Below, in pieces: positions 5,179 through 46,835 of a DNA stretch of 64,000 nt. Every line of letters begins with the position of its first letter. Position 1 is the first letter of the stretch. Location: assembly GCA_021799485.1 (NCBI GenBank), contig JAJZAK010000009.1, positions 2,850 to 66,849 of the forward strand. The letters run 5' to 3'. This DNA is from a bacterium. GTDB lineage: Bacteria > Elusimicrobiota > Elusimicrobia > UBA1565 > UBA9628. Both the position numbers and the translations under genes were made by a program. The notes beneath the pieces are model-generated. The model did no database searches, had not been told where the DNA came from, and saw nothing but the letters and a program-made list of their open reading frames with translations.

Positions 5179-5194
<16 letters not shown>
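3611..5194 (-). CDS. lnt: Apolipoprotein N-acyltransferase
   Basis: Multi-TM N-terminus followed by CN-hydrolase domain (LWPESSIPF..., [14 protein letters not shown]); length 527 aa typical of Lnt. Confidence 0.88.
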
Positions 5195-7911
<2,717 letters not shown>

Positions 7912-28803: not shown

Positions 28804-29804
28804 GGCATGGAGAAGGTTTGAGACGGTTTCTTGGGAAGGTTAAAGGTCAAGCTCACGAAGCTTTCCGTACCCAGAACCCCCATCGGCACGAAGGCGTAAT
28901 CGATCGAGAAGCCCTTGAACTTGATCCCGAGGCCGGCGCTGACGGCCGACAGAACCCCCAAGCTCGATAGGGTCTCGGTGTTAAATCCCGCCCGGACCGC
29001 CCCCGAGATGTCGCGGTCGAAGTCGGCGGTGTATTCGGTCCCCACGGCGGCGAAGGCGGGGCTGTAGTTCGGCAAGGTCACGTCGCAAGAGACGAGAAGA
29101 GGCCTCCAGGGCCGCGCCGCGCCGCCCATCTTCGCTTGGAAGGGAAGGGGCTCTTGGGTTTGGACGAATTTGGGGCCGGAGCCGATGTTCTGCGCGGACA
29201 CGGCGAGGGTATAGGGGAACAGCCCGCGTTCGAAGCGCGCCATGGCCCCGATGTCGGCGCCGTAGCCGGTGGCCGTCATAAGATAATCCGAGTGGATGTA
29301 GCGGAGGGTGGCGCCTAGGTCGACGGACATGTCTCCGGAGGACATGTCGTAGATGTCCGATCCCCAGCCGAACTCGGCCACGAGGTTGTTGGGATTAAAG
29401 GTGCCGAGAGAGTTGTTGTTGACGTCCGTCTCCTGGACCGAGCCCAGGTTTTGATAGCGGAGGCCTCCGGCCAGGACGTCGAAGTCGCTGACCCGTTGGG
29501 CGTAGTTGGCCGCCTGGTAGTTGATGCCCGCGACCTGGCTTCCGTACATGAAGCTGCCGGAGGCGCGGGGAATGAGGGCCAATCCAGCGGGATTCCAAAA
29601 AATCGAATTCGAGTCGTCGGTGACCGCCGTCATGGCGCCGCCCATGGCGATGCCTCGCGCTCCGACGCCCATGAGAAGAAAATCGTCGGATGTCGTTCCG
29701 ACGCTTTGGGCATTGAAAAGGCCCGCTACGGCCGGGGGGCCCGGAGCGAGGAGGGCCAGAAGACAAAGCGAGAGAATCCGCGGGGATAAGGAGCCTAAAG
29801 TCAT
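28800..29804 (-). CDS. PorV/PorP(SprF)-like FadL-type outer-membrane beta-barrel
   Basis: Signal peptide, then ...LLMGVGARGIAMGGAMTAVTDDSNSIFWNPAGLA motif characteristic of PorV/PorP/FadL-like barrels; C-terminal ...LTFNL aromatic/hydrophobic barrel end; ATGA overlap with upstream giant CTD gene. Confidence 0.55.
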   Translation of the reverse strand: MTLGSLSPRILSLCLLALLAPGPPAVAGLFNAQSVGTTSDDFLLMGVGARGIAMGGAMTAVTDDSNSIFWNPAGLALIPRASGSFMYGSQVAGINYQAANYAQRVSDFDVLAGGLRYQNLGSVQETDVNNNSLGTFNPNNLVAEFGWGSDIYDMSSGDMSVDLGATLRYIHSDYLMTATGYGADIGAMARFERGLFPYTLAVSAQNIGSGPKFVQTQEPLPFQAKMGGAARPWRPLLVSCDVTLPNYSPAFAAVGTEYTADFDRDISGAVRAGFNTETLSSLGVLSAVSAGLGIKFKGFSIDYAFVPMGVLGTESFVSLTFNLPKKPSQTFSMP

Positions 29805-32800: not shown

Positions 32801-34078
32801 GCCGTCCGAGCCCGGAGGATTCGTTCCCTGGAAACCGAAAACGACGGTCCCGCTCGCGAAGGAGACGTTCGCGGAGGAGAAAAGAATATAGCCGTCCTTG
32901 ATCATGCCCGTCGCCTGCACGCCCAAGGACACGCTTAATTGGGAGAAGTTCAGGTTGTAGCTTTGTATTGGCGCCGAGGCGTTCGGGGCCAACGAGAAGT
33001 TGCTGCATGCGCTGGGCATGGCGCACGGGGAGTTGAAGGTCACGGTGGAGCCGGTCTGCAGGGAGCCGGAGGCCGCGACATAGGTGGTCGTGATCGTGCC
33101 GAGCCCGCCAAAAAGGTAGACGCCGCCGTCCGCCTGCAGCGTGGCCGTGTGAAGGGCCTTGTACTCCTCCATGGGTTGGCCCAGCGTGACGCTGCCGGAG
33201 GTCGGGTCATAGATTTCCGTTCCAGCGAGATAGCCGCCGGGGCCGGGGCCGGTGGTCGAGTCGCCCGGATTGGCGATGCCGCCGGCGATGAGGACCTGGT
33301 TGTCGCCCATCAAGGTCGCCGTGTGATAGGCCCGATGGACGGAGAGGGGGGTGGAGGCGCTGAAGGCGTTGGCCGACGGATCGTAAAGTTCGGTCGAGAG
33401 AAGAAATCCGTCGGTCGAGTTGTAGCCGCCCGCAATGAAGACGCGGCCGTCGGAGAGAAGCGTCGCGGTGTGGCCCGTGCGTTGGGTGGTCATTGTGATC
33501 AGAGAAGTATTGAACGCCCCGGGCGCTCCACTAAAGGAGCAATTGGGATCGTTGGCCGGAAGGGGAAGCGAGGCCGAGGGGGTAAACATCTCGCAGCTTT
33601 GATGAAAGGTCGGCGTGTTGTCCTGCCCGCCGCAGACGAGGACGGAGCCATTAGACAGAAGGGTCGCCGTGTGGTCGTAGCGGGCTTTCGTCAGGGGGAT
33701 CGTCGTTCCATACATGCAGTGATAGACGGGATTGTAGACCTCGGCGGTATTGCTGACTCCCGTAGGCGAACAACTGTTGCCGCTGCAATAGACGCCGCCC
33801 ACCAGCAAGACGTCGCCGTTCGGCAGCAACGTGGCCGTATGCGAAGCCCGCGCGACGGACATGGTCGCCGAAAGTGTCGTGGCGCTTCCGTTGTTGGCGT
33901 TGATCAACACGATTTGATTGGAGAGTCCGCTCGTCGTTGAATAACCGCCCGTCAGGAGGATGTTGTCGTCCGGAAGAAGCGTCGCGGTTTGGTCGGCGAG
34001 GGTTTGGGCCGCCGCCGAAATCGCAAAAAATGCGGAGGAGAAGGCGGCGCAGGCAAGGACGGCCTTTGTCACGCGCAT
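29801..34078 (-). CDS. Giant secreted protein: ~13 Kelch-like blades (two beta-propellers) + Ig/FN3-like region + C-terminal T9SS/FlgD-Ig-like sorting domain
   Basis: Signal peptide; recurring HTATLLxxGxVLVxGG blades; C-terminus IYPNPFYPSRSLDMTF...LWNGSNASGQPVASGLYLAVIQSNGGSQIHKIVILR matches Por-secretion/FlgD-Ig CTD consensus. Confidence 0.8.
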   Translation of the reverse strand: MRVTKAVLACAAFSSAFFAISAAAQTLADQTATLLPDDNILLTGGYSTTSGLSNQIVLINANNGSATTLSATMSVARASHTATLLPNGDVLLVGGVYCSGNSCSPTGVSNTAEVYNPVYHCMYGTTIPLTKARYDHTATLLSNGSVLVCGGQDNTPTFHQSCEMFTPSASLPLPANDPNCSFSGAPGAFNTSLITMTTQRTGHTATLLSDGRVFIAGGYNSTDGFLLSTELYDPSANAFSASTPLSVHRAYHTATLMGDNQVLIAGGIANPGDSTTGPGPGGYLAGTEIYDPTSGSVTLGQPMEEYKALHTATLQADGGVYLFGGLGTITTTYVAASGSLQTGSTVTFNSPCAMPSACSNFSLAPNASAPIQSYNLNFSQLSVSLGVQATGMIKDGYILFSSANVSFASGTVVFGFQGTNPPGSDGGQGTSCSNLQGAAVCLAGVRVTCGSSGNCGQITLNNISLSAMSDTMACGASGCGTVYVSTTPVGTDPNNVGGAVSAYIDLTGKNYSVAIATIVINSMIFGDEEQYSPAANTWTFANHPNYGSIESYGHAAVLRPNDSILATGGLTCSAAVPTIAPCSPANQNLRTLLYYRSFATGSASLQTARANHTSTLLSSGTILTAGGENVSGFLNSAEILNPNGNSVTATGSMSYPRALHTATLLVNGNVLVAGGQTDVGGSTQTTATAEIYFSALGAWAMTGSMQNARQNHGMLLLPDGTVLVAGGNQLGGSYLSSAEVYASTTGLWSATASLPYSASNLAMTLLRDGAVLACGGINAGGPVKNAAIYTPGSGWVSVDPMPAALYNHQATLLPDGRVLVTGGDNGGGETSSSYIFNPNMPSGSQWSATGPLQTPRFGHNAVALPDGEVWVIGGAQGSGIIANPDADEFFDPYTQSWSTYTFEIKQGRIGHTTVLAPNGYLYVIGGSGGGSNYLNSIESGYFTSFPDALTAGAPPSIRQPAVTGSNASSFYPGNSFTLTGSNFQGMTEGSSGGGAGSNSFFYGPRLSLQALAGSGGGPQGGGGFTVDLSTELYYGPAAITPWNLINSSLTAVMGAAYPPPLSDTLPLGWYQLRVGANAQFSNGYIVQAGPLKPAAAPTNIMGSTLTATAIQWTWNPVSQLPGYPVDGYDVYDSSTGLWIATVAVSGAPSYVQTNAVPGSPNAIIVAAYNLSGDGPSAASPAVITATASASCSAPPGEICGIVYPTTINNVTGSLGDGELVQLTIPAGSFATSYSSIEVLAAAPSPLPCGSLGTGIAVALSTVYPGANIQPTGSLQLVMSYTSAELPQPTSEYSVMRYDPVGKQCHPVPTTFDSATNLVTATIDQLATYEVTQIQPASTLGPVEIYPNPFYPSRSLDMTFANLPSGSRLRIFTTRGLRVLDVSVGATGTYLWNGSNASGQPVASGLYLAVIQSNGGSQIHKIVILR

Positions 34079-34189: not shown

Positions 34190-34555
34190 CTATTCGGCGC
34201 TTTCTTGGAGGTTCTTCGGAAGATCCTCGATCTTGGCGGCGAGGATGAAATCGTTTTCCGACAGGCCCCCGATGGCATGGGTCCAAAGCTCGACGGCAAG
34301 CCGGCGGTATTCCGTCAGGTGGATGTCCGGATGATGGCCCTCCGCCTCGGCGACGTCCTTGATCCGGACGATGAGGTCGACGGCGCTCGTAAAATCCTTC
34401 ATGAGCAGATTGCGGCGAATGCGCCTGCCGTCACCCGAGATCCGCCATGCCGGCAGGGCCGCGAGGTATTCCCGGGCGCGCGCGACGTTGAGAGGCGGCG
34501 CGCCTCCGGAGCAGGGCTTGCACCGGCCGAAGCGAAGAGCTTCAACGAGAGTCAT
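34190..34555 (-). CDS. Pterin-4a-carbinolamine dehydratase (PCD/PhhB)
   Basis: ...EGHHPDIHLTEYRRLAVELWTHAIGGLSENDFILAAKIE conserved PCD core; ORF 34190..34798 trimmed (N-terminal extension is low-complexity). Confidence 0.8.
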   Translation of the reverse strand: MTLVEALRFGRCKPCSGGAPPLNVARAREYLAALPAWRISGDGRRIRRNLLMKDFTSAVDLIVRIKDVAEAEGHHPDIHLTEYRRLAVELWTHAIGGLSENDFILAAKIEDLPKNLQESAE

Positions 34556-35705
34556 CGCGATGGGCTTTTCGCAACGTCTCGACCAGGGCCGCGACGGCCT
34601 TCGGAGCGTCCGCCCGGGCCACGGGGCGAAGATCCTTGCAGGCAAAGAGCGTCGGCCTGTCGCAGGGGAGCAGCTTGTGGGCCTGCAGGTAGTCCTGGTC
34701 GTCGGGATGGACGAAGGAGATGATTTTTCTGGGGAGATAGTGGCGGTTGAGGGCCGCGAGCAGCGGCGCCCGGTCCTCGGGCTTGGCCACAAGCTCAAAA
34801 TCCATGCGGCCGCGGCTCAAGAGCTCCCAGACGCGGGCAAGACGCGCCTCCCGCGGCGAGGCGAGCTTCGACCAGAGGCCCTTGATGCCCCAGGCGGCCC
34901 AATCCGAGTAATGCTTGTTTCCTTTGAGTTCGGAGAGCCGCCAGGCGCCCTCGAGGGCGACGGCGTTCTCGTGGAGGACGAGCCGGTCGCTCCCTGCCGC
35001 GGCGGATGGGTCCATGAAGCCGCCGCGTTCCCGGTCCCAAAGCTCTTGAAAAAGCTCCCGCAGAAGCTCCTCGGCGGCCTCGCGATGGGGCCTGTGGCCG
35101 GAGGTCAGGAAGGACTCCGTCAGAGCAAGGATGCTCCATGCGTGTTCCGCGAGGGCCGGGGAGCGGGCGGGGCCGCCGTTGAGGGGGGCGTCCGGCGCGC
35201 TCCCGTCCGTCAGGCGGGAAAGCATGCGGTCCGCCGCCGCCAAGTAGTCGGGCCGCGGGCAGCAGGCGTTGGCGCGCAGGAAGGCCAGGGCGAGGACGGC
35301 CTCCGTCCGCGGAGCGGCATCTCCCAGCCAGGCGTTCTCGTTGCGCAGAAGGTGCTCCATGAGTCCGATTCCGATTTCCTTTAACAACGGCTCCTGGGTC
35401 AGGGCGTGAACGTCCCAGACATGCTTGGCGGTCACGGCGGATTCGGCGAGGTTTTTCCATCCGGGCCCTTCCGACTGGCGGGCGCTGGCCGCCAGGTCGA
35501 GGACAAGACGGCCTCGGGCGGCCTCGGCATGCGGAGAGGCCCATTCCGCCGCGGCGAACAGCGCTAAGTCCACCGCCCCGGCGATTCTCGATATCGGGCC
35601 GGGCTTGCGCAGGATGTTCGAAAGCGCCTTTCGGCTCCATCCCGCCGACGGGCTATCGACGGGCAGATCGTTCCCGACGGCTCCGGTCCAGACTGAATTT
35701 TTCAT
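34542..35705 (-). CDS. Six-hairpin-glycosidase-like / DUF255 C-terminal-domain protein (thioredoxin-domain-protein family, lacking the Trx domain)
   Basis: Alpha-helical repeat composition; resembles C-terminal (alpha/alpha)6 half of DUF255 proteins; start chosen to abut GDPD stop rather than overlap 130 nt. Confidence 0.4.
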   Translation of the reverse strand: MKNSVWTGAVGNDLPVDSPSAGWSRKALSNILRKPGPISRIAGAVDLALFAAAEWASPHAEAARGRLVLDLAASARQSEGPGWKNLAESAVTAKHVWDVHALTQEPLLKEIGIGLMEHLLRNENAWLGDAAPRTEAVLALAFLRANACCPRPDYLAAADRMLSRLTDGSAPDAPLNGGPARSPALAEHAWSILALTESFLTSGHRPHREAAEELLRELFQELWDRERGGFMDPSAAAGSDRLVLHENAVALEGAWRLSELKGNKHYSDWAAWGIKGLWSKLASPREARLARVWELLSRGRMDFELVAKPEDRAPLLAALNRHYLPRKIISFVHPDDQDYLQAHKLLPCDRPTLFACKDLRPVARADAPKAVAALVETLRKAHRDDSR

Positions 35706-35706
35706 C

Positions 35707-36498
35707 TTAGAGGTGGGGATGGCGGCAGTCTCGGAGAAGGCTCGGATCATTCGCGAAGACGCCGTCGACGCCCAGGAAACGCAGGCGCCGGCCTTGCGCC
35801 GCCGAGAGGACGGTGTAAGCCAGGACGCGAAGGCCATGCTTGTGGGCGGAGCGCACGCTCGCGGCGGTCGTCTGCCGTAGGCTAAGATGGAGGCTTTCCG
35901 CTTTCAGCTCTTTCGTGTCTTTCAAGGCTCTGATCGTCGGCGTACGACCTAATAAATAGCCGATCCGCGCCGAAAAATCAACTCTTCGCACCTCGAAGAG
36001 GGCTTGATGGTCGAAGCTCGATATGACGCTGTCTCTCAGCCCGCCCATCTCCTTGAGGAGACGCACCGCGCGAGCCTCGATTCCGGGATAATAGCGCGAT
36101 CCCTGCTTGAGTTCGAGATGGACGGCCGCGCGGCCGAGGAGAAGTTCGAGCGTCTCGCGCAGCGTGGGAACCCGTTCTCCCGCGAACTGGGGGCCAAACC
36201 ATGATCCGGCATCCAGGCTCCTAATGCGCGAGGCGTCGAGGTCCTTGACGAGGGCGTCGAGGCCGCAGGTGCGCTTTAAGTTCTCGTCGTGAATGACGAG
36301 CAGTTCGCCATCGCGGCTTTGGTGCACGTCGAACTCAACCGCTTTGGCGCCCATCTCGATGGCCCGCCGGAAGCTGGAGAGGGTGTTTTCCGGGGCCAAG
36401 GCGCTCGCGCCCCGATGGGCGACGATCAAAAAACTAGCCACAGCGAGCCAGGCGATCGGAGAAACGATCGAAGACCGACTCCGGAATTTCGACGCCAA
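35707..36498 (-). CDS. Glycerophosphodiester phosphodiesterase family protein
   Basis: HRG motif (LIVAHRGAS), EFDVHQSRDGELLVIHD; alternative GTG/TTG starts at 36441/36429 would remove overlap with PHP gene. Confidence 0.8.
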   Translation of the reverse strand: MASKFRSRSSIVSPIAWLAVASFLIVAHRGASALAPENTLSSFRRAIEMGAKAVEFDVHQSRDGELLVIHDENLKRTCGLDALVKDLDASRIRSLDAGSWFGPQFAGERVPTLRETLELLLGRAAVHLELKQGSRYYPGIEARAVRLLKEMGGLRDSVISSFDHQALFEVRRVDFSARIGYLLGRTPTIRALKDTKELKAESLHLSLRQTTAASVRSAHKHGLRVLAYTVLSAAQGRRLRFLGVDGVFANDPSLLRDCRHPHL

Positions 36499-37312
36499 GC
36501 GGCCGGTCCCGGCCCGTCCCGGGGCCGTGGAAGTCGGAGCCGCCGGTCGAGAGGAGGTTGAACCCAGCCGCGACGCCAGCCCAGTGCTTCCGCTCCTCTT
36601 CCGAAAAGGCCGCGTAGTAGGATTCGATGCCTTCCAGACCTGCCCGGACCCATTCGGGAAGATGCTTGAGAGCCGTTTTGGCCGTCTTGGGATGAGCCAG
36701 GCTCGCGAATCCCCCGGCGTCGCGGATAAGAGCGATCGCTTCCTCGGGGGTCGGGCCCAAGGGCTCCGCGAATCCGGGACGGCCCCGAGACAGGTATTTC
36801 TCGAAGGCCTCCGAACGCGTGCGCACGATCCCCTTGCGCCGCATCAGGTCGGCCACGTGCGGCCTTCCGAGGGGGGAGTCGGGAGAGGAAGGAAGTTCCT
36901 CGGGAGAAAGCGGGAGGCCCAGCTCGCGCAGTCGGCGCATGATGGCGTCGACGCGGTCCCGGCGCCGGCTGCGGAAACGCGACAGGGCCGCGAGAAAGGA
37001 GGGATCCTGGGCGCGAATTCCGTAGCCAAGGAAGTGGACCTGGCCTTCGGGATAGTTGGAGTTGATCTCGATGCCGAGGGAAAAATGAATTTTCGCCGCC
37101 GTCGCCGCGGCCGCGGCCTCCTCAAGGCCCGCGACCGTATCGTGATCCGTGAGAATCAGGAGGTCGAGCTTCGAGGCTTCGGCGCGCTTGACGACTTTCT
37201 GGGGGGGGAGGGTCCCGTCCGAGTGACGGGAATGAGTGTGGCAGTCGAAGCGCTTCAATCGAGCTTTTCCTAGACCGTGACGACCTCCTTGATTTCCGGG
37301 ACGGCCTCGCAC
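36434..37312 (-). CDS. PHP-domain phosphoesterase (TrpH/YciV-like)
   Basis: FDCHTHSRHSDG, ILTDHDT motifs; alternative TTG start at 37258 (GGAAAAG upstream) would end 43-nt overlap with nfu. Confidence 0.75.
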   Translation of the reverse strand: MRGRPGNQGGRHGLGKARLKRFDCHTHSRHSDGTLPPQKVVKRAEASKLDLLILTDHDTVAGLEEAAAAATAAKIHFSLGIEINSNYPEGQVHFLGYGIRAQDPSFLAALSRFRSRRRDRVDAIMRRLRELGLPLSPEELPSSPDSPLGRPHVADLMRRKGIVRTRSEAFEKYLSRGRPGFAEPLGPTPEEAIALIRDAGGFASLAHPKTAKTALKHLPEWVRAGLEGIESYYAAFSEEERKHWAGVAAGFNLLSTGGSDFHGPGTGRDRPLGVEIPESVFDRFSDRLARCG

Positions 37313-37545
37313 ATGGCGCGCTCGACGCCGCCTTTGAGGGTCGCCATGGAGCTCGGGCAGGAGCCGCAGGCGCCGTGGAGCGCGACCTCGGCAGTCCCGG
37401 TTTCCTCGCGAATCGCGACAAGGGTGATGTCGCCGCCATCGGATTGGATATAGGGCCGGATCCGGGCGAGGACCGATTCCACGCGGTCCTTGAGAGAGGC
37501 GGGGGCGGACTGGCTGGGCTGGACGGGGTTCGTCGGGTCTTCCAT
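37270..37545 (-). CDS. NifU-like (Nfu) Fe-S cluster carrier domain protein
   Basis: ...VALHGACGSCPSS... CxxC of Nfu C-terminal domain; AAGGAG SD 7 nt upstream of chosen ATG. Confidence 0.8.
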   Translation of the reverse strand: MEDPTNPVQPSQSAPASLKDRVESVLARIRPYIQSDGGDITLVAIREETGTAEVALHGACGSCPSSMATLKGGVERAMCEAVPEIKEVVTV

Positions 37546-37555
37546 GGCGGGCTCC

Positions 37556-38026
37556 TTATCGCATCGGCAAGGGCCGGCCGGGCGGCATAAATTCAACGCG
37601 CGCGGTCGCGGGCTCCCCGCGGATCAAGTCTTCGAGCGTGGTGCTCGAGAAAAATTCGGTGAGGAGGGCGCCCAGGCGCCGCCAAAGGGGGGACAGCGAG
37701 CACCCGGACTGGTGGTGGCATTCGCGCGGGGCGTCGGCGTATTTCGAGCAGACGTCCTCGAAAATCGAGCCATCGAGGGCGATCACGATGCGGTTCAAAG
37801 TGATCTCATGGGGCGGCCTTGCGAGGACGTATCCCCCGCTGGAGCCGCGGCGGCTCGAGATCACGCCCGCGCTTTTAAGCTTCCAAAGGATCTGATTCGT
37901 GTAGTCGAGGGGGATGTTCTCCTCGCGCGCGAGCTTCTCGGCCGAGAGGGGGGCGTCCCCGTCCGCCTTCGCGATCGCGGCCATGAGCCGCATGCCATAT
38001 TCCAGCGAGCTCGTGATCCTCATCAA
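37556..38026 (-). CDS. Rrf2 family transcriptional regulator (IscR/SufR-like)
   Basis: N-terminal wHTH (YGMRLMAAIAK...PLSAEKLAREENIP), C-terminal Cys cluster (C...CHHQSGC) for Fe-S sensing. Confidence 0.8.
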   Translation of the reverse strand: MMRITSSLEYGMRLMAAIAKADGDAPLSAEKLAREENIPLDYTNQILWKLKSAGVISSRRGSSGGYVLARPPHEITLNRIVIALDGSIFEDVCSKYADAPRECHHQSGCSLSPLWRRLGALLTEFFSSTTLEDLIRGEPATARVEFMPPGRPLPMR

Positions 38027-38343
38027 TAGATTCCCAGCTGGTCCTTGGCCTCCTCCGAGGCCATTGTTTTTGGATCCCAGAGAGGGTCGAAGGTGAGGTC
38101 CACGTCCACGTCCTTGACGCCGGGGAGTTTCGCCACGGCTTGATGGATCGAGGCGAGCAGCATCGGGCCGTAGGGGCAGGCGGGCGAGGTAAGGCTCATC
38201 ACCACCTTGACGGCGTCGCCGCCTTCCGCCGCTCCCGATTTAACCTCCGCTCCGTAGACGAGCCCCAGGTCCACGACGCTGATGTGGATCTCCGGGTCCG
38301 CGACCGGCTTTAACGCTTCTCCGATTTCCTTAAAAGTCGGCAT
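38023..38343 (-). CDS. sufT: DUF59 / SufT-like Fe-S assembly protein
   Basis: ...ISVVDLGLVYG...VVMSLTSPACPYGPML... typical MIP18/DUF59; AAGGA SD. Confidence 0.75.
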   Translation of the reverse strand: MPTFKEIGEALKPVADPEIHISVVDLGLVYGAEVKSGAAEGGDAVKVVMSLTSPACPYGPMLLASIHQAVAKLPGVKDVDVDLTFDPLWDPKTMASEEAKDQLGIY

Positions 38344-38345
38344 GT

Positions 38346-38843
38346 CTATTTTTCCTTGAATTCCGTCGAGGCCGCGCCGTCGGAGGGCGCTTTGAGGCCC
38401 TCGAGGAGCGTATTCCAGGCGAGGGTCGCGCATTTGACCCGCATCGGGTACTTGCGCACCCCTTCGAAGGCCCGCGCCTCGCCCAGGCGCTCGGGAAGGG
38501 CTTCCGGCGGGGTTTCCCGCAGCATCATGGACTTGAAGGCTCTGGCAAGCTCGCGGGCCTCGGCGACGCTCAGGCCTTCCATGGCTTCGGCCATCATGGC
38601 CGAGGAGGCCTGGCTGATCACGCAGCCGTGGCCCGAGTAGCGGAGCCGGGCCAGGCGTCGGCCCTCCTGGACGCCGTCCTTCGTCAAGGACGCCGAGATC
38701 TCGATTTCGTCTCCGCACACGGGATTGACGCCGTGGGAGTGGATGTCCGCTTCCGCGATCGCTCCCTTGTGGGCCGCGCTCTTGAAATAGTCCAGGAGCA
38801 CGTCCCGGTAGAGGTCCTGGAGCTCCGAGTCGCCTTCGGCCAT
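38346..38843 (-). CDS. sufU: SufU-type Fe-S scaffold / sulfur acceptor (NifU N-terminal family)
   Basis: VCGDEIEIS, GHGCVISQASSAMMAE, KCATLAWNTL motifs. Confidence 0.8.
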   Translation of the reverse strand: MAEGDSELQDLYRDVLLDYFKSAAHKGAIAEADIHSHGVNPVCGDEIEISASLTKDGVQEGRRLARLRYSGHGCVISQASSAMMAEAMEGLSVAEARELARAFKSMMLRETPPEALPERLGEARAFEGVRKYPMRVKCATLAWNTLLEGLKAPSDGAASTEFKEK

Positions 38844-38851
38844 GGGAAGTC

Positions 38852-40093
38852 TTAGGCGATCGCCTCCTCCTTTTTGAAGAATCGCGCGGCCTTGGAGACG
38901 GCCGCGGCCAGGAGGTCGATCTCCTCCAGGGTGTTGTAGAGATAAAAGCTCGCGCGCACGGTGCCTGGGATCTTGAGCTTGGCCATCAGGGGCTGGCAGC
39001 AATGATGTCCGGCGCGCACGGCGATGCCCTCCAGGTCGATGGCCGTGCTCGCGTCGTGAGGGTGGAGCCCCGCGATGTTAAAGGAGACGAGGCAGGCCTG
39101 GCGGTCGAGGTCCTTCGGGCCGTACATCTCGACCTCGGGCATCGAACCCAGGACGGAAAGCGCCCGGCCGAGCAAGGCCCGCTCGTGACGCTCGATCTCA
39201 TCGAAGCCAACGCCCCGGAGGTAGTCGATCGCGGCGTCGAAGGCGGCGGCGTCGGCGATGTTCGGAGTGCCGGCTTCGAATTTATAGGGCAGGACGTTAT
39301 AGGTCGAATGATCGAGAAAGACCTGCCTGATCATGTCGCCGCCGCCGAGAAAAGGATCCATCGCCTCGAGGATATCCTCCTTGCCGTAGAGGACGCCGAT
39401 CCCCGTCGGCCCCAGCATCTTGTGGGCCGAGAAGGCGAGGAAGTCGCAGCTCCAGGCCCGGACGTCGATGGGGCGGTGCGGAGCCCACTGGGCGGCGTCG
39501 ATCAGGGTTTTCGCGCCGATCGAGCGCGCCATCGCGAGGATCTTATCGATGGGGCTGACCGATCCCAGGGCGTTCGAGAGGGCGGAAAAGGCGATGAGCT
39601 TGATCCTCGGGGAGAGCATCTGCCGCGCCGAGTCGACGTCCAGCGTGCCGTCGTGGGCGAGCGGGATGAAGCGCAGCTTCACGCCTTTCTCCCGGGCGAT
39701 CATCTGCCAGGGGACCAGATTGGAGTGGTGCTCGATCTCCGTCAGGAGGATCTCGTCGCCTTCCTTAAGGAATTTGCGGCCCCAAGCGTGGGCGACGAGG
39801 TTGATCGACTCGGTCGTGTTCCGCGTGAAGATGACGCAGTGGGCATGGCGCGCGCCGATGAGGGAGGCGACTTTGGCGCGAGTCGTCTCCACAAGGTTCG
39901 TCGCCTCCTCGGAGAGCTCGTGGACGCCGCGGTGAACGTTGGCGTTGTGGCGCTCATAGAAGGAGACCAGCGACTCGATCACGGCGCGGGGCTTCTGCGT
40001 CGTGGCGGCGTTGTCCAGGTAGACGAGGGGCTTGCCCCTCACGCGGCGCGAGAGGATGGGGAAATCCTTGCGAATTTTAGCGGGATCAATCAT
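38852..40093 (-). CDS. sufS: Cysteine desulfurase SufS (group II)
   Basis: PLP-lysine SAHKMLGPTGIG, RAGHHCCQPL active-site loop; ORF trimmed to MIDPAKIRKDFPIL. Confidence 0.9.
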   Translation of the reverse strand: MIDPAKIRKDFPILSRRVRGKPLVYLDNAATTQKPRAVIESLVSFYERHNANVHRGVHELSEEATNLVETTRAKVASLIGARHAHCVIFTRNTTESINLVAHAWGRKFLKEGDEILLTEIEHHSNLVPWQMIAREKGVKLRFIPLAHDGTLDVDSARQMLSPRIKLIAFSALSNALGSVSPIDKILAMARSIGAKTLIDAAQWAPHRPIDVRAWSCDFLAFSAHKMLGPTGIGVLYGKEDILEAMDPFLGGGDMIRQVFLDHSTYNVLPYKFEAGTPNIADAAAFDAAIDYLRGVGFDEIERHERALLGRALSVLGSMPEVEMYGPKDLDRQACLVSFNIAGLHPHDASTAIDLEGIAVRAGHHCCQPLMAKLKIPGTVRASFYLYNTLEEIDLLAAAVSKAARFFKKEEAIA

Positions 40094-40400
40094 GGCTTGT
40101 CTCGATGAGCACGTCGTCTCCCTCCACCTTGACGGGGAAGGTCCTGATGGGCGCGATGGCGGGCATGCGCGTGGCCTCGCCCGTGCGGATGTCGAAGCGG
40201 GCCCCGTGGCGGGGGCATTCAACCTCGAAATCCTCGAGGGGGCCGTTGTCGAGGGAGCCTTCGTCGTGGGAGCAGACGTCCTCGACGGCGTAGAGCTTGC
40301 CCGCGGCGTTGAAAAGGATCACCCGCGTCTCCCCAACTAGGACGATCGCGCGCCCGCCGGGCGGGATGCCGGAGAGCTTGGCGGCCTTGACGAGCGTCAT
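40086..40400 (-). CDS. Rieske [2Fe-2S] domain protein embedded in suf operon
   Basis: CSHDEGSL ... CPRHGARF Rieske boxes; 104 aa. Confidence 0.8.
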   Translation of the reverse strand: MTLVKAAKLSGIPPGGRAIVLVGETRVILFNAAGKLYAVEDVCSHDEGSLDNGPLEDFEVECPRHGARFDIRTGEATRMPAIAPIRTFPVKVEGDDVLIETSHD

Positions 40401-41653
40401 GAGAGGGCTTGCTCCCGCAACTTTTGCGCGATGCGATCCTCGAGCCGGCTCGCGAGTTCCGGAGAATGGATCTGGCCGAGGAGAGGCGAGAAAAAACCCA
40501 TGACCAGGGTTTCCTGCGCTTCCTCGGGCGAGAGGCCGCGGCTTTCGACATAGAAGAGGTCCTCGGGATCCGGAGCCCCCGCCGTCGCCCCATGCTTGCA
40601 GCGGACGGAGTCGGTGAGGATCTCGAGAAGAGGCGTCGTGTCCGCGCGCGCCGAGTCGGAAAGAAGGAGATTATGGTTTTCCTGGTAGGCGTCCGAATCG
40701 GAAGCCGTCTTCTCGATGCGGACGAGCCCCGTGTAGACGGCGCGGGCGCGGTCCTTGAGCGCGGCGTTAAAAAGGAGGCGGCTCTGCGTCTTGGGAGCGT
40801 CGTGGACCTGGCGCGAATGGAAGTCGAATTTCTGAGTCCCTGATCCCATGAGCGCTCCCCACAGAGAGGCTCCGGCGCCGGTTCCGCGCAGGCGGACCTC
40901 CAGGTCGCTTTTGTGGAGGGCGCCGCCAAGGATCAGCGAAGCGTGCGCCAGAGTGGCGGAAGACTCAATTTCGGCTGTCTGCCGCCAGAACGTCCGCGAG
41001 GCCATGGGCAGATCCTGGAGATAGAAATGCTTGACGCTCGCTCCGGCGCCCAGGAAAAGCCTTGAGAAGGAAAGGACGGCGGGCGCCTGGGACGCCGACG
41101 GCCCGTTGGAGGAAGCTCCGACATGCTCCTCAATGACAATCGCGCGGCTTTCCGGGGCCGCGAAGATCGAGAATCGCGGAAAGGCGAAGCCGTCTGAGGC
41201 CCGCGCCGTGACCCGCACCACCGTCTCGGAATCGGCGGCCGGAGGGATGAAGACCATTAGGTCCTTGGCCGCTAGCGCCCGGCTGAGGAATTCGATCTTC
41301 GCGTAGGAGCCGACCGGATCGGCTTCGAGGACGCGCCGCGCCTGCGCCGCGAATCGAGAATCGCGCAGGGCATCCTCCAGGGAAAGGACGACGGCCTCCG
41401 GCGGCGCGACGATGGAGAGTTCGCCTCCGTCCAGTTCCGGGCGGCCTCCTCGGTCCTTGAGCCGGTCGAGCCCGAGGGAGGCGTAGTCCGTTCGGCGCCA
41501 CTCCGGGGCGCTCGGGAGCGGCGGCTCCGCCGAAAGATAGGCGTTCCAGGCATCCTCTCTCGATGGAATCGCGGCGGACGGATGGCGCTTGGGGGACGGT
41601 TGGCCGTTGACCGTCGCGGGATCGCTCACGCCGCGGCTGGAGAGAAGGCTCAT
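40397..41653 (-). CDS. sufD: Fe-S cluster assembly protein SufD
   Basis: SufBD-fold C-terminal region; ATGA overlap with sufB stop; long ORF 40397..42358 trimmed because its upstream part is antisense to sufB. Confidence 0.85.
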   Translation of the reverse strand: MSLLSSRGVSDPATVNGQPSPKRHPSAAIPSREDAWNAYLSAEPPLPSAPEWRRTDYASLGLDRLKDRGGRPELDGGELSIVAPPEAVVLSLEDALRDSRFAAQARRVLEADPVGSYAKIEFLSRALAAKDLMVFIPPAADSETVVRVTARASDGFAFPRFSIFAAPESRAIVIEEHVGASSNGPSASQAPAVLSFSRLFLGAGASVKHFYLQDLPMASRTFWRQTAEIESSATLAHASLILGGALHKSDLEVRLRGTGAGASLWGALMGSGTQKFDFHSRQVHDAPKTQSRLLFNAALKDRARAVYTGLVRIEKTASDSDAYQENHNLLLSDSARADTTPLLEILTDSVRCKHGATAGAPDPEDLFYVESRGLSPEEAQETLVMGFFSPLLGQIHSPELASRLEDRIAQKLREQALS

Positions 41654-43065
41654 CCGACGGAGCCCTCCATCTCGAGCTGGATGAGCCGATTGAGCTCGAC
41701 TGAGTACTCGAGAGGGAGTTCCCGGGCGAACTGATCGAAGAAGCCGTTGACGATCATGGTCACGGCTTCCTGCTCCTTCAGGCCCCGGCTCATCAGGTAG
41801 AAAAGCTGTTCCTCGCCGATCTTGGAAACGGAGGCCTCGTGCTCGACGCGAACGCGCTTCGAATCGATCTCCATAGTGGGGTAGGTGTCCGATCGCGACT
41901 TCTCGTCGAGCAGCAGAGCGTCGCAGCGGACGTTGACCTTGACGTCGTGGGCCTGGGAATGGACCTTGACGAGGCCCCGGTAACTCGCCCGCCCGCCGTC
42001 CTTCGAGATGGACTTGGATATGATCGTTCCTGAGGTGTGGGGCGCGGCGAAGATGAGCTTGGCGCCGGCATCTTGATGCTGTCCTTCTCCCGCGAGAGCG
42101 CAGGAGAGGATGTCGCCGCGGGCGCCCTTGCCCACGAGGTAGACCGCGGGGTATTTCATGGTGAGCTTGGAGCCCAGATTGCCGTCGACCCATTCGACGA
42201 TCGCGTCCTCGCGGGCGATGGCGCGCTTCGTCACGAGGTTGTAGACGTTGTTCGACCAATTCTGGATCGTGGTGTAGCGGATGTGCGAGCCCGGCATGGC
42301 GATGAGCTCGACGACGGCTGAGTGGAGGGAGTCCGCCGCGTAGGTCGGGGCGGTGCACCCCTCGATGTAGTGCACCTTGGAGCCTTCCTCGGCGATGATG
42401 AGCGTGCGCTCGAACTGCCCAGCCTTTTGGGCGTTGATGCGGAAGTAGGCCTGGAGCGGCATCGCCACCTGGGCGCCCTTGGGGATGTAGACGAAGGAGC
42501 CGCCGGACCAGACGGCGGTGTTGAGGGCCGCGAACTTGTTGTCCGTCGAGGGGATGACGGTCCCGAAATAGCGCTTGACGACGTCCGGGTATTCCTTGAG
42601 CCCCGTGTCCATGTCGGTGAAGATGACGCCCTGCTTCTTGAGGTCCTCGTTGATGCGGTGGTACACCGCCTCGGAGTCGTACTGGGCCGTGACGCCCGCG
42701 AGGAATTTGCGCTCGGCCTCGGGGATGCCGATCTTCTCGAAAGTGTTCTTGATGGACTCCGGCACATCCTCCCAGCGGCCCTCGGTCTTTTCGGTGGGTT
42801 TCAGGTAATAGTAGATGTCGTCGAAGTCGATGGCGTTTAAGAACGCGGTGTCGCCCCAGGCGGGCATGGGCTTCGACTTGAAAATCCGGTAGGCTTCCAA
42901 GCGCTTATCCCGCATCCAGGAAGGCTCTCCCTTCATATGCGAGATTTGCTCGACGACCCGCTCGTCAAGGCCCTTTCGGCTCTTGAAGACGAGCATTTCC
43001 TCGTCGTGGAAGCCATATTGGTAGCCGGTCTTGATGCCGGCGGCGGCCTGGGTCGAGGGGTTCAT
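41650..43065 (-). CDS. sufB: Fe-S cluster assembly protein SufB
   Basis: 471 aa, highly conserved SufB sequence. Confidence 0.95.
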
Positions 43066-43826
43066 GAGGCCAGCTCCGAGGCCAGGGCTTTCCCCTCGAG
43101 CCAGGCGTAGCCTTTCTTCTCCAGTTCAAGCGCCATCTCGGGCCCACCGGATTCCACGATGCGGCCGTCCTTGAACACGTGGACGAAGTGGGGCTTCACA
43201 TAATCGAGGATGCGCTGGTAATGGGTGACGAGAAGGATGCCGTTTTCCGGTCCTGCGGTCTTCATGATGCCGGAGGCAACCACGCGCAGGGCGTCGATGT
43301 CCAGGCCCGAGTCCGTCTCGTCGAGGATCGCGAGCCTGGGGTTCAGGCAGGCCATTTGCAGGATCTCAAGCCGCTTTTTCTCGCCGCCCGAAAATCCGTC
43401 GTTGACGTAGCGGGTGGCGAACTTTTCGTCCATATCGAGGAGCGACATCTTCTCGCGCAGGGTCTTGCGGAAGTCTCGGATGCCGGCCTCGGCTCCCTTG
43501 ACGGACTTCATCGCCGTGCGGATGAAATTGGCGACGCTGACCCCGGGAAGCGCCATCGGATATTGGAACCCAAGGAAAATTCCGAGCCGAGCCCGCTCGA
43601 AGGGGGGAAGCCCCGTGACATCCTTGCCTTCGATAAGAATTTTACCGTCCATCAATTCGTAGCGTGGATGTCCCATGACGGCGTACGAGAGAGTGCTTTT
43701 TCCGGAACCATTGGGACCCATGAGGGCGTGGATTTCGCCCTTTTGAATCTTGAGGGAGACGCCCTTTAAGATAGGGCGCCCCTTGACGGCGACTTGTAAG
43801 TTATCGATCTCCAGTAGAGCTGGCAT
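43062..43826 (-). CDS. sufC: Fe-S cluster assembly ATPase SufC
   Basis: Walker [13 protein letters not shown] signature FSGGEKKR, Walker [13 protein letters not shown]; AGAGGAGA SD. Confidence 0.95.
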
Positions 43827-44288
43827 GGAGTCTCCTCTTTGAAGAGTATTAAAAGTATCGCTAATTAAAAATACGGGATAATCAGCCGACAACATGTAGT
43901 TTATGATACCTGAGTATTTTAGTCAAGTTTTCGCATCGACTTGCGCAAGATGCCGCCTAATGCAGCCGCCTTAGGGTCCAAAACGCCGTCACGCCTGCCG
44001 CCGCCTTCATTAAACGGGCGCGGCTATCCCGGCCGATGGGGCGAGCGCTTCTTTAGCGACGCCGTCCTCGGGCACGCCTCTTTTCGGCATCAATCGGGGA
44101 GAGGCGGTCGAGACGGTCTTTTTTCTCGAAGCCCCCTGGCGGGCGATCATGTCCACTTAGGGAGGCGTTCCCGTGCGACGGCCTCGTGGACTCGGGGTCC
44201 TTGCGCGGCGCTGAGGGCCGCGACAGTCTTCAGGTTCAAGGCAGACCAGCCTTCCGAGAAGCTCGCGGACGGTGGTTGTGCGAGCGCG

Positions 44289-45176
44289 TTAAAAGAAGTT
44301 GGCGAACGACGATTCGGCGGACGAGAAGAAATTTTCGATGAAACTAGCTTTTTTGCTGATGTCGCCGAAGAAACCGGTGAACGCGCTTTGCAGGGGATTC
44401 TGTTCGGGTCCCTCGAGAGGGGACGAAGCGCCCGCAACTTGGTTATTAACCGGGGGAAATTGAAAATAATGCGCGGACTCCCCCGTCGAGCAAACGCCCA
44501 TCAGCGTCTCGGGGACCGGCACGGCAAAACCGCCGATGATCCCGCCGACAAAGGCCCGGCACCATCGGAACGGTTGAGGGAAGGCTCCCGGGGTGTTGGG
44601 AGGCCCATTGAACGACGACGCTCCGCCGGCCCCCGCAACCGTCATGCCCGGCGTCATGATGGGTCCCGAGGCTAAAAACCCACGCGGCACCGGACAACGC
44701 CCCATCACAATGTTCGGCTGGATGGAACCGGATGGATTCACGAACCAAGGAGATGGCTGCGCCATGGGGTAGATTGGTCCGACAATATGCGGACACCAGT
44801 CTCCGATTCCGATCTGCGGACAAACCCAATGTCCAAGGGTTTCACCAGAATTCTCCAGGTCGGCCGACATGGCCGGGTCGGGCGTCGGCTGGCCGCCGCC
44901 CGGGCAAGCGCCCGGCGGTTGGGGAAACGGGATGCAGTGGAATTTTGCGTTAATCGAAGCGCCGCCAAAGAAATTCAGGAAGCTAGCCGGAGCCGGGCCG
45001 GGGACTGCGATTTGGCCGGAGGGGCATTGGAAGCCTGCGACGGCGCCCCCAGAAGGCGGAAACGCCCCCATGTCTCCATCTGCGGCCGCGAAGCCTGCCG
45101 AGCCGACGGCAAGCATCCAGGCGGCGATCCACGTCAATACCTCTTTCCCAAACTTTGAACTGGCCTTATTATTCAT
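44289..45176 (-). CDS. Secreted Cys-rich protein, novel family (paralog A)
   Basis: Signal peptide; conserved core HCIPFPQPPGACPGGGQ...HWVCPQIGIGDWCPHIVGPIYP shared with downstream paralog; strong SD GGGAGGGGAGGA 8 nt upstream. Confidence 0.6.
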   Translation of the reverse strand: MNNKASSKFGKEVLTWIAAWMLAVGSAGFAAADGDMGAFPPSGGAVAGFQCPSGQIAVPGPAPASFLNFFGGASINAKFHCIPFPQPPGACPGGGQPTPDPAMSADLENSGETLGHWVCPQIGIGDWCPHIVGPIYPMAQPSPWFVNPSGSIQPNIVMGRCPVPRGFLASGPIMTPGMTVAGAGGASSFNGPPNTPGAFPQPFRWCRAFVGGIIGGFAVPVPETLMGVCSTGESAHYFQFPPVNNQVAGASSPLEGPEQNPLQSAFTGFFGDISKKASFIENFFSSAESSFANFF

Positions 45177-45224
45177 CAATCTATCCTCCCCTCCCGGTTT
45201 GCCAGAGAAGCCATGTTCTGTTGA

Positions 45225-46835
45225 TTAGAGTCCGCCAAAAAACCCCGCGAGATTGTTCCACGTAGCGTTTGTCGCGCCAAGACTCCCGCCAATAAACGGG
45301 GAGGCGGGAAATGTCCACGTTCCGTAAGTGCATTGTGAGCCCTGAGCACCATTGTGAGCGACCAGCATGCCTGGGAACTCTTTGGGAGCGGTCCACAGGT
45401 CGACGGATTCACCATTGAGACAAGACATGGCGGGATTGTCCGTCTCGAAGTCGAGGATTTGGCCGACATGGCGCGCATCCGAAAGACCTTCGATGGTGAT
45501 GTTTTTGACCCGAGTCATAAAGACCGACTGCCAAGTCCCCTGGTTGTCCCAGAGGCCGACGGCTCCGTCAGACTCCGCCATGCGACCGGAAACCTGCGAA
45601 GGAAGCGCAAAAAAATGCGTTTGTTCCCCGGCTATCCCGGACTGGCAGACTTCTATCTGCCTCAATATGTAGGTCCCTAGGACCCCCCCTGGGTGGTCAG
45701 TGCAATACTTGTACGGTTGAGGGAAAAGAGACTGCATTATGCCGATGGCGCCTCCAGCGGCTGCGGGTGCAGCCGCTCCCCCGAGCGCCGTTCCTCCCCC
45801 CGTGCAAGCGAATCCCGGAGGCAAGTTGCGGCAGTTTTGGCCACCAGGGCCTATCCCCTGAGATTGTTGTGGGAGACAATCTCCCATCACGAGTTGAGGT
45901 GCTTTCGTCGCTTCGCTTATGGCTCCAGAAATGCTGTTGATTATGCCGTTAGTTGGAACCGCGGCGCCGGCCGCAGGAATCGGGTACACGGGACCCACGA
46001 TGTGCGGGCACCACCCGCCGACTCCAACGGAAGGACAAACCCAATGCTCAACGACAAAGCCGCTCTGGCTGAGCGCGGCATTCATGTTCGGGTCAGGGGA
46101 AGCCTGGCCGCCGCCAGGGCAAGCCATCGGCGGCTGGGGAAGCGGGATGCAGTGGCGGGCGATGGAGACGTTCGCGCCGGCCTGATTGGCCGATTGGCTG
46201 ACCGCTCCGGCGGCGGGACCGTGGCCGTTCGGCGCCGCCGCGAATAAGGTTGGCATAGTAACCGGAATGGAAATCTCACCGGCAGGGCATGCAGAGCTAT
46301 TGCTCGTGGAACTGCCGGCCCCCGACTCCGCTATGGTCCCCGTGGGAGCGCTGGTCCCCGAACCCAACACGGAGCCTGAACCACTCCCGCCGTCGCTCGC
46401 TGGGCCGCCCGGATTGCGGATGCAGCGATTTCCCGCCGAGATCGTATCCGGAGGGCAATGAGGGCCACCACTTGTATAGCCGCCACTGTCGCCTCCAACC
46501 GGGGGGGAGCCCGTTGCGGGTGTGGAAGAATTCCCGCCGCCTCTAACAGGAGGAGATTCCTTCCCCGGGAAGCCGCCGTTTGTGGAGCCACTAGAGGAGC
46601 CGTCACCGCCTTGGACTTGGCCAACCGGCGTCTTGAGCAACGAGCGAAGCTGTTGGAACGTGGCCTCCGCCTGGGATGGTGTCATATAATAAACTTCGCT
46701 CGAAATATTGACCGGAGAATCCCGGCCTTGCCCCTCAGCGGCGGAAGCGACCACCACCATGTTGGCCGCAAATAAAAAAGCGGCTCCGGGCGCCGCGAAA
46801 TCTTTGAACAGCCTACACAAAATGGCGTCTTTCAT
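45225..46835 (-). CDS. Secreted Cys-rich protein, novel family (paralog B, with Gly/Ser-rich N-terminal extension)
   Basis: Signal peptide; core HCIPLPQPPMACPGGGQ...HWVCPSVGVGGWCPHIVGPVYP and second block FPQPYKYC...VCQSG...HFF aligned to paralog A; SD GAGGAGG. Confidence 0.6.
   Translation of the reverse strand: MKDAILCRLFKDFAAPGAAFLFAANMVVVASAAEGQGRDSPVNISSEVYYMTPSQAEATFQQLRSLLKTPVGQVQGGDGSSSGSTNGGFPGKESPPVRGGGNSSTPATGSPPVGGDSGGYTSGGPHCPPDTISAGNRCIRNPGGPASDGGSGSGSVLGSGTSAPTGTIAESGAGSSTSNSSACPAGEISIPVTMPTLFAAAPNGHGPAAGAVSQSANQAGANVSIARHCIPLPQPPMACPGGGQASPDPNMNAALSQSGFVVEHWVCPSVGVGGWCPHIVGPVYPIPAAGAAVPTNGIINSISGAISEATKAPQLVMGDCLPQQSQGIGPGGQNCRNLPPGFACTGGGTALGGAAAPAAAGGAIGIMQSLFPQPYKYCTDHPGGVLGTYILRQIEVCQSGIAGEQTHFFALPSQVSGRMAESDGAVGLWDNQGTWQSVFMTRVKNITIEGLSDARHVGQILDFETDNPAMSCLNGESVDLWTAPKEFPGMLVAHNGAQGSQCTYGTWTFPASPFIGGSLGATNATWNNLAGFFGGL

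Follow-up and report, generated by a model that had tools for sequence, protein, structure and literature searches.

A SUF operon with an embedded Rieske ferredoxin gene and a predicted Rrf2 operator in an Elusimicrobia-like bacterium

Gene content of the operon

We analyzed a 64,000-nucleotide stretch of bacterial DNA (GenBank assembly GCA_021799485.1, contig JAJZAK010000009.1, positions 2,850 to 66,849 of the forward strand), referred to here as the window, which carries a cluster of genes for iron-sulfur (Fe-S) cluster assembly. A previous interpretation made from the letters alone, which we call the sequence-only reading, had proposed the gene order sufC-sufB-sufD-Rieske-sufS-sufU-sufT-rrf2-nfu. 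Pfam and NCBIfam models located all nine genes in this order on the minus strand, from 43826 to 37270, and the locus is almost certainly the complete, ordinary housekeeping SUF operon, of the SufS/SufU type, of an Elusimicrobia-like bacterium. Between sufD and sufS it carries a gene for a Rieske ferredoxin, and it also encodes an Rrf2-family regulator whose predicted operator lies at the promoter of the operon. The nine genes, in window coordinates and with scores against curated cut-offs in bits, are as follows.

43062..43826, minus strand: sufC, scaffold ABC-type ATPase, 254 aa (TIGR01978, 330.2 against 212.8)
41650..43065, minus strand: sufB, scaffold subunit, 471 aa (TIGR01980, 696.9 against 346.4; PF01458 match)
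40397..41653, minus strand: sufD, scaffold subunit, 418 aa (TIGR01981, 224.7 against 222; PF01458 match)
40086..40400, minus strand: Rieske [2Fe-2S] ferredoxin gene, 104 aa (PF00355, 62.6 against 20.3)
38852..40093, minus strand: sufS, type II cysteine desulfurase, 413 aa (TIGR01979, 570.9 against 475.1)
38346..38843, minus strand: sufU, sulfur-transfer partner of SufS, 165 aa (TIGR01994, 132.8 against 92.5)
38023..38343, minus strand: sufT, DUF59 (FeS_assembly_P) maturation factor, 106 aa (PF01883, 58.2 against 23.5)
37556..38023, minus strand: rrf2, Rrf2-family regulator, 155 aa (PF02082, 109 against 30)
37270..37545, minus strand: nfu, NifU C-terminal-type Fe-S carrier, 91 aa (PF01106, 86.1 against 27)

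The five core proteins SufB, SufC, SufD, SufS and SufU all score above the curated cut-offs of their models, SufD barely so. SufT falls below the NCBIfam equivalog cut-offs (TIGR02945, 79.5 against 143.4; TIGR03406, 91.5 against 202.6) and is assigned by its DUF59 domain together with its location in the suf operon, between sufU and rrf2. Nfu carries the CxxC motif GACGSCPSS. No SufE or SufA homologue was found in the operon with Pfam and NCBIfam models. The locus resembles the SUF systems of Firmicutes (sufCDSUB) and Thermotoga, which likewise combine SufBCD and its SufC ATPase with a type II SufS and SufU and have neither SufE nor SufA; in Thermotoga the order is sufC-sufB-sufD-sufS-sufU (PMC2946596). 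It differs from them by the addition of the Rieske gene between sufD and sufS, sufT, rrf2 and nfu, and possibly of the PHP and GDPD genes described below. The core is a standard member of the SUF family, and the variant architecture around it is widespread but functionally under-studied.

The genes are tightly packed, as had been proposed: each junction is either an overlap or a gap of at most 10 nt. The ATGA overlaps noted previously at sufC/sufB and sufB/sufD are present in the sequence, and a third, also of 4 nt, joins sufD to the Rieske gene, which in turn overlaps sufS by 8 nt (ATGATTGA). The sufT stop and the rrf2 start have one base in common (TGATG). The remaining gaps are 8 nt (sufS/sufU), 2 nt (sufU/sufT) and 10 nt (rrf2/nfu), and the nfu ribosome-binding site AGGAG overlaps the rrf2 stop. 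The sufC start was placed at the ATG at 43826, five bases past the ribosome-binding site GAGGAG (43837-43832). The ATG of the longest open reading frame (ORF), at 43895, was rejected; it falls in the leader.

Conservation in Elusimicrobia-type relatives

Among named homologues, those nearest to the Rieske protein come from metagenome-assembled genomes (MAGs) labelled Elusimicrobia by NCBI. Four relatives were examined, referred to as L007, L090, L089 and L001, with Rieske identities of 94%, 68%, 58% and 58%, respectively. L001 and L089 are contigs of NCBI-labelled Elusimicrobia MAGs that span the whole locus, and L007 and L090 are shorter, with partial coverage. The full order sufC-sufB-sufD-Rieske-sufS-sufU-sufT-rrf2-nfu-PHP-GDPD is identical in L001 and L089, and the order is identical across the covered part in L007 and L090. 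The sequence-only reading had held that a Rieske gene missing from the suf loci of all relatives would indicate a recent insertion; instead, all four relatives have the gene, and it also turns up in suf loci of several other phyla. Because the relatives share this gene order, neither the Rieske gene nor the distal rrf2-nfu pair is a recent insertion; as read from the compared sequences, both are ancestral to the lineage.

Transcription unit

A consensus scan identified a single good promoter for the operon, located upstream of sufC. The region in which it lies (43827-43940) is AT-rich, as reported earlier, at 36% G+C compared with 64% for the window.

43898..43926, minus strand: sigma-70-like promoter TTGACT-17 nt-TAAACT (-35 hexamer 43926-43921, -10 hexamer 43903-43898; 9/12 consensus positions)

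The layout TTGACT-17-TAnACT is also found upstream of sufC in L001 and L089. One internal promoter-like site (40103-40074, 9/12 positions) was rejected, as it lies within coding sequence and three such sites were found where 1.2 were expected. A terminator scan detected no minus-strand terminator-like hairpin between sufC and nfu; terminator-like hairpins in the region occur at the chance level (12 found, 9.1 expected). The possibility raised in the sequence-only reading that a separate promoter or terminator isolates rrf2-nfu is thus not borne out, given the overlap of the sufT stop with the rrf2 start and the missing internal minus-strand terminator.

Right after the -10 box, the leader contains the minus-strand sequence GTTGTCGGCTGATT (43876-43891; stretch GTTGTCGGCTnATT), which is near-identical in L001 (GTTGTCGGCTTATT) and not found in L089. 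This leader stretch did not score as an operator, RNA structure in the 5' untranslated region was not significant (z = -0.92), and no Rfam family matched anywhere in the window.

At the other end, the co-directional and tightly spaced cluster runs on past nfu into two further genes.

36434..~37258, minus strand: PHP-family phosphoesterase gene, TTG start ~11 nt past the nfu stop (PF02811 match)
35707..36498, minus strand: glycerophosphodiester phosphodiesterase (GDPD) gene (PF03009, 149 bits)

PHP and then GDPD follow nfu in all four relatives (L001 12940-15625, L089 11235-13839, L007 3358-4912, L090 5236-6764). In L089, nfu, PHP, GDPD and nadA, which encodes a [4Fe-4S] enzyme, successively overlap by 4 nt, and nadA is the next gene after GDPD in both L001 and L089; it was not found in the window. 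Because the tight cluster continues in this way, the suf transcription unit may extend beyond nfu to PHP and GDPD, and its 3' end at 37270 is provisional. GDPD is followed in the window by an ORF of 431 aa without a Pfam match (34542-35837, minus strand), which is kept in L007 (86% identity) and L090 (44%); L001 and L089 have nadA in its place.

The Rieske protein and its distribution across phyla

The Rieske protein carries the ligand motifs C43-S-H45 and C62-P-R-H65, which are invariant across 24 aligned homologues, and the signature ECPRHGARFD around the cluster is invariant or highly conserved in the same alignment. With two Cys only, it is without the disulfide pair of the high-potential Rieske proteins of bc1 and b6f complexes. 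The AlphaFold2 model (predicted local distance difference test, pLDDT, 94.6) superimposes on the BphA3 (2e4q) and naphthalene dioxygenase (NDO; 2qpz) ferredoxins with a template modeling (TM) score of 0.93, and a sequence search of the PDB likewise placed the ferredoxins of dioxygenase systems closest. By its modeled fold and its missing disulfide, the protein is assigned as a soluble, low-potential-type Rieske ferredoxin. Similar to the ferredoxins of biphenyl, naphthalene, carbazole and toluene dioxygenases, it has CxH...CxxH ligands, a length of ~100 aa and no disulfide, and the best matches (BphA3/BphF, NDO ferredoxin, TodB and CarAc) have TM scores of 0.89-0.93, root-mean-square deviations of 1.0-1.3 Å and 28-37% identity. 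It differs from them in the ECPRHGARFD signature and in its conserved suf context. A PADLOC scan of the protein gave no match.

To survey the gene more widely, a profile built from the 24-homologue alignment was run against one genome per GTDB species. Among the matches listed, 598 of 600 stretches were confirmed relatives, and the counts that follow refer to the best 80 of at least 598 loci. At these 80 loci the suf genes were located by tblastn with the window proteins, and genes within 400 nt were called adjacent. The loci belong to Chloroflexota (Dehalococcoidia, Anaerolineae and Caldilineaceae), Poribacteria, Eremiobacterota/Vulcanimicrobiota, Eisenbacteria, Nitrospinota and a few Proteobacteria. 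In 76 of them the Rieske gene has suf genes no more than 10 kb away, and in 60 it has one directly beside it. The commonest arrangement is sufU-Rieske-sufT (22/80), followed by rrf2-Rieske-sufS (12/80, all Dehalococcoidia) and by a Rieske gene between sufD, or a sufB-like paralogue, and sufS (10/80). Actinobacterial (Streptomyces) suf clusters presumably contain a Rieske gene as well.

The Dehalococcoidia operons have the order sufB-sufC-sufD-sufU-rrf2-Rieske-sufS-sufU (L003-L006, L009-L015, L023, L031, L033, L036, L044 and L056), with two NifU_N/SufU-like genes and with rrf2 immediately upstream of the Rieske gene. In L003 and L004, from a Dehalococcoidia genome, further genes are inserted between sufB, sufC and sufD (2469-5510), namely a PaREP1-family gene and an AAA_15/AAA_21 ATPase gene with one for a DUF3226 protein. 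The insert resembles a small module of mobile or defence-like character inside a housekeeping operon.

A search of 1.8 billion cluster representatives with the Rieske profile, followed by Pfam annotation, also returned proteins in which Rieske and DUF59 (SufT) domains are fused (P0136, P0169 and P0170). These contain the same two domains that are encoded here by unfused genes, with sufS and sufU in between. Three Rieske-SufT fusions are recorded as the SufT 'S7 architecture' in the S. aureus SufT paper (PMC4982691). Further domain architectures occur among other close relatives found with the profile (P0125, P0126, P0129, P0132, P0144, P0151, P0231 and P0267), including Rieske-DUF2231 (membrane)-Rieske proteins of ~430-480 aa, protoglobin-Rieske-Rieske, and a fusion of Rieske and NAD_binding_1 domains, a possible pointer to a reductase partner.

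Given its retention across rearrangements, its translational overlaps and its domain fusion, a functional link between the Rieske protein and SUF is very likely on sequence grounds, and it is highly probable that the protein is a functional SUF accessory. A point against such a link is that the Rieske gene of Eremiobacterota lies outside any full suf operon, and at three loci the nearest 10 kb contain no suf gene. The exceptions to the suf association are mostly from this group, where the gene lies beside a penicillin-amidase-family gene and is either 1-6 kb downstream of a lone sufB or more than 10 kb from any suf gene (L050 8548-12434 and L051 9273-12289). Our search of the full-text literature found no functional study of a suf-linked Rieske protein; the sole relevant item was the record of the fusions (PMC4982691).

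The public names given to the homologues by PGAP and IMG, 'non-heme iron oxygenase ferredoxin subunit' and '3-phenylpropionate dioxygenase ferredoxin subunit', suggest a different reading, in which the protein is the ferredoxin subunit of a non-haem iron oxygenase and a mere passenger or client in the suf operon. The occurrence of the gene outside suf operons in some Eremiobacterota fits this reading, as does the top NCBIfam match, which is HcaC-like at 100.1 bits. That match is nevertheless below its cut-off, as are all the oxygenase-ferredoxin equivalogs (NF007422, 100.1 against 113; NF042948, 84.3 against 150; NF041683, 70.9 against 150), and no oxygenase or reductase gene was found among the Pfam-scanned ORFs within ~12 kb downstream and 5 kb upstream. 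The public names are therefore family-level labels and not functional assignments. The overlaps of 4 and 8 nt with sufD and sufS, the suf context kept across phyla despite rearrangements and the fusion to SufT also speak against an oxygenase partner. The oxygenase reading is disfavoured, and we consider it very improbable.

Possible roles of the Rieske protein in SUF

If the Rieske protein is a dedicated accessory, it would most likely be a low-potential one-electron carrier that provides electrons for reducing persulfide or coupling clusters, in close cooperation with SufS and SufT. The ISC system has its own ferredoxin, Fdx. In the NIF system, a [2Fe-2S] redox module is built in as a permanent domain of NifU, and for SUF the electron source is FADH2 on SufBC2D, which is a proposal only (PMC13066941). 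A donor role is attractive for this reason, since NIF has its [2Fe-2S] module and ISC its Fdx, while SUF has only the proposed FADH2. The likeness to Fdx and the NifU domain is one of role, by analogy: in each case a small [2Fe-2S] redox protein or domain is encoded with the assembly machinery, to which it would supply electrons. The folds and ligands are unrelated (2His/2Cys in Rieske proteins, 4Cys in the adrenodoxin type). Gene context, fold and fusions together make the specific assignment as the SUF electron donor a tentative one, which we rate somewhat short of an even chance.

Several observations weigh against the donor assignment. Dioxygenase-type Rieske ferredoxins have potentials of about -150 mV, which makes them moderate reductants, less reducing than the ISC ferredoxin. 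No reductase partner was found among the scanned flanking ORFs, and the Rieske fusions indicate SufT as the nearest partner. It could instead be that the protein acts in SUF in another capacity: it may sense redox state or oxidants and thereby tune the activity of SufS or SufT, serve as a robust holder or carrier of a [2Fe-2S] cluster, or be a specific partner of SufT in the maturation of particular clients. Both the existence of the Rieske-SufT fusions and the prevalence of sufU-Rieske-sufT among the best 80 loci point this way, as does the lack of a reductase among the scanned neighbours, and the conserved ECPRHGARFD surface around the cluster would fit a specific protein partner. On the other hand, the nearest structures are all dedicated electron shuttles. 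Rieske clusters are fixed, His-ligated prosthetic groups for which no transfer is known. An exclusive role with SufT fits poorly with the position of the gene, which adjoins sufS and not sufT both here and in Dehalococcoidia. Taken together, a non-donor role within SUF appears rather unlikely.

The Rrf2 regulator

The protein encoded by rrf2 has the Rrf2 winged-helix fold by its family matches, and among the NCBIfam models it passes that of the superfamily only (TIGR00738, 103.4 against a cut-off of 73.3). It scores far below the IscR models (TIGR02010, 77.7 against 207.55; NF008110, 60.7 against 275) and below the Xanthomonas-type SUF regulator (TIGR02944, 78.3 against 110.65), from which it also differs in being encoded by the eighth gene and not the first. 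The NsrR model (NF008240) gave 25 bits against a cut-off of 182, and the CymR and RirA models were likewise below cut-off. A metagenome scan with the protein returned best relatives of 28-46% identity, mostly on short contigs, on which no promoter footprinting was possible.

In Escherichia coli IscR, residue Glu43 governs the choice of DNA site. Potential cluster ligands were examined in an alignment that combined the window protein, 14 orthologues linked to suf and IscR of E. coli. Cys92, Cys102 and Cys108 (C-x9-C-x5-C) are conserved in all 14 orthologues, and position 8 is acidic throughout (Glu8 here; Glu or Asp in the orthologues). Aligned to IscR, the equivalent of His107 appears to be missing, with Ser111 there, and the position of Glu43 appears to be occupied by Asn43 here and by Asn, Thr, Asp or Ala across the aligned orthologues. 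The cluster ligands of IscR are Cys92, Cys98, Cys104 and His107 (PMC6599224), whereas the [4Fe-4S] cluster of NsrR is ligated by three Cys and by Asp8 of the partner subunit (PMC5411485). By family criteria, that is, by score and predicted ligands, the regulator is not IscR. Its ligand set of three Cys and Glu8 resembles that of NsrR rather than that of IscR, and on this basis the protein would presumably bind an Fe-S cluster.

The comparison with known regulators is mixed. Like E. coli IscR, the protein is a member of the Rrf2 family encoded in the Fe-S assembly operon that is its predicted target. Unlike iscR, its gene is eighth and not first, the operon is suf and not isc, the Cys spacing is C-x9-C-x5-C in place of C-x5-C-x5-C, and the Arg8, Glu43 and His107 of IscR are replaced by Glu8, Asn43 and no His107 equivalent. 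As in Streptomyces coelicolor NsrR, a [4Fe-4S] repressor, three Cys are conserved and residue 8 is a conserved carboxylate. The overall similarity to NsrR is weak (25 bits against 182; PDB 5n07, E = 4e-7), the gene context is Fe-S assembly and not nitric oxide (NO) detoxification, and the operator predicted here is of an IscR type-1-like kind.

A predicted operator at the suf promoter

The window was scanned with the type-1 consensus of IscR, ATASYYGACTRWWWYAGTCRRSTAT (PMC6599224), which derives from E. coli and is thus independent of the suf loci compared here. This identified one candidate site.

43906..43930, minus strand: predicted Rrf2 operator, IscR type-1-like 25-bp palindrome AAACTTGACTAAAATACTCAGGTAT, 2 mismatches to ATASYYGACTRWWWYAGTCRRSTAT

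It is the sole match at ≤3 mismatches in the window, and none of 100 shuffled sequences gave a match. The sequence-only reading had placed the target of any autoregulation in the AT-rich region upstream of sufC, where the palindrome indeed lies; the site found there, in a scan aimed at type-1 sites, is type-1-like and not the type-2 motif that it had suggested. The palindrome spans the -35 hexamer and most of the spacer, and such an overlap with the promoter is as expected for a repressor. At 23/25 to the type-1 consensus and overlapping core promoter elements, it resembles the site of E. coli IscR at the iscRSUA promoter, and overlap with core promoter elements is also seen for site B of the Pseudomonas aeruginosa iscR promoter.

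The site recurs in relatives. At the corresponding position, the palindrome of L001 is a perfect TTGACTAAAATAGTCAA and that of L089 is closely similar. A search of 1.4 Mb of related loci gave no more than five matches at ≤4 mismatches, and each lies immediately before the first suf gene in an operon that contains rrf2. In Dehalococcoidia, the palindrome ATTsTTGACYnnnnnrATCAAsAAA is located just downstream of a separate TTGACC-17-TATAnT promoter. We derived the pattern TTGACY-N5-RNTCAR from the orthologous sites and searched for it in the 130 nt preceding the first suf gene. Of the 20 retrieved loci with an internal rrf2 and an available upstream region, 15 contain it there and four more contain a one-base variant; none of the retrieved rrf2-less loci has it upstream of its first suf gene. 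(L089 carries rrf2, though it is entered as 'no-rrf2' in the pattern table.) The E. coli consensus gave a similar picture in 200-nt upstream regions, where the lowest mismatch counts were 3-9 for the 12 non-redundant operons that contain an internal rrf2 and 8-12 for the 33 operons that do not. The difference in mismatch counts (Mann-Whitney p = 5e-7) and the share of operons at ≤6 mismatches (7/12 against 0/33, Fisher p = 2e-5) both favor an association with rrf2, with p-values that are optimistic given the phylogenetic relatedness of the compared loci.

This relatedness counts against autoregulation. The operator also covers the -35 hexamer, such that part of the conservation in the three Elusimicrobia-type promoters could be promoter conservation. 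Furthermore, with Asn43 and no His107 equivalent, the cluster dependence of DNA binding known from IscR cannot simply be transferred to this protein.

In an alternative reading, Rrf2 is not the suf autoregulator but controls other genes, for cysteine metabolism in the manner of CymR or for the response to NO in the manner of NsrR, and the palindrome is promoter sequence. The closest solved structures by sequence are the CymR-like 3lwf and CymR 2y75, the palindrome includes the -35 hexamer TTGACT, and the protein stays below the cut-offs for IscR, the SUF regulator, CymR, RirA and NsrR. However, CymR is without the three-Cys cluster motif that is conserved here, and the only suf operons preceded by the palindromes are those with an rrf2 gene. 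Since the Dehalococcoidia copy has a separate promoter upstream of it, the palindrome is more than a -35 box. There is also no second credible site in the window: the other match to a position weight matrix built from 16 sites (CTGGTCAATTTAATCAA, 57078-57102) was rejected as a chance match, as it lies within the coding region for the N-box (VLVNLINNA) of a histidine kinase (55669-57834). We consider control elsewhere improbable and autorepression by Rrf2 at the predicted site at 43906-43930 likely, as judged from the distribution of the motif.

Other features of the window

Two paralogous Gly/Pro/Cys-rich ORFs lie just upstream of the suf promoter on the minus strand (44289-45179, 296 aa; 45225-46835, 536 aa). 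Neither has a Pfam match, and they have in common the motif HCIPxPQPPxACPGGGQ...PDPxM...HWVCP...GxGxWCPHIVGPxYP. They could belong to an undescribed family of proteins that are secreted or displayed at the surface. On the far side of the operon, a Kelch-repeat protein of 1425 aa (29801-34078, minus strand) is encoded in synteny with L007, and the gene after it specifies a PorV-like protein of type IX secretion (28800-29909, minus strand).

Discussion

Reading the locus from its sequence, we favor, with moderate confidence, an explanation in which a SUF operon with one promoter is subject to feedback by its own Rrf2 protein and the Rieske protein is an accessory and a likely electron carrier. 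The sequences themselves show the gene content, order and overlaps, and they show the operator-like motif, its uniqueness and its conservation. That Rrf2 binds a cluster, in which direction it regulates and what the Rieske protein does are inferred within this explanation.

The single promoter upstream of sufC would drive the housekeeping operon. SufS would take sulfur from cysteine and pass it to SufU, SufBC2D would build the cluster, and SufT and Nfu would act late, as maturation and carrier factors. An Fe-S-loaded Rrf2 dimer, with three Cys and Glu8 as its putative ligands, would bind the 25-bp palindrome over the -35 hexamer and spacer and block RNA polymerase. When clusters are scarce or damaged, through Fe-S shortage or oxidation, Rrf2 would leave the DNA and the whole operon, including rrf2, would be derepressed. 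With rrf2 distal and co-translated, the supply of the regulator would track the output of the operon and close a homeostatic loop.

A bolder version of this explanation is that the suf-embedded Rieske protein is the long-sought dedicated donor of SufS/SufU-type SUF systems and that the operon is controlled by a new clade of Fe-S-sensing Rrf2 repressors. We regard this combined claim as doubtful. If it is true, the donor role would extend to Elusimicrobiota, Chloroflexota, Poribacteria and other phyla and would be exercised at the interface of SufS-SufU, SufBCD or SufT. The Rieske protein would then correspond in function to Fdx in ISC and to the permanent [2Fe-2S] domain in NifU, and the repressors of the clade would have NsrR-like ligands and act at an operator like the type-1 sites of IscR.

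For the electron source of SUF, where FADH2 on SufBC2D is only a proposal, the presence of a Rieske gene in suf operons of distant phyla offers a concrete and cheap candidate. Likewise, the Rrf2 protein and its predicted type-1-like site form a clean regulator-operator pair, which could help explain how the Rrf2 family combines DNA-site choice and cluster type.

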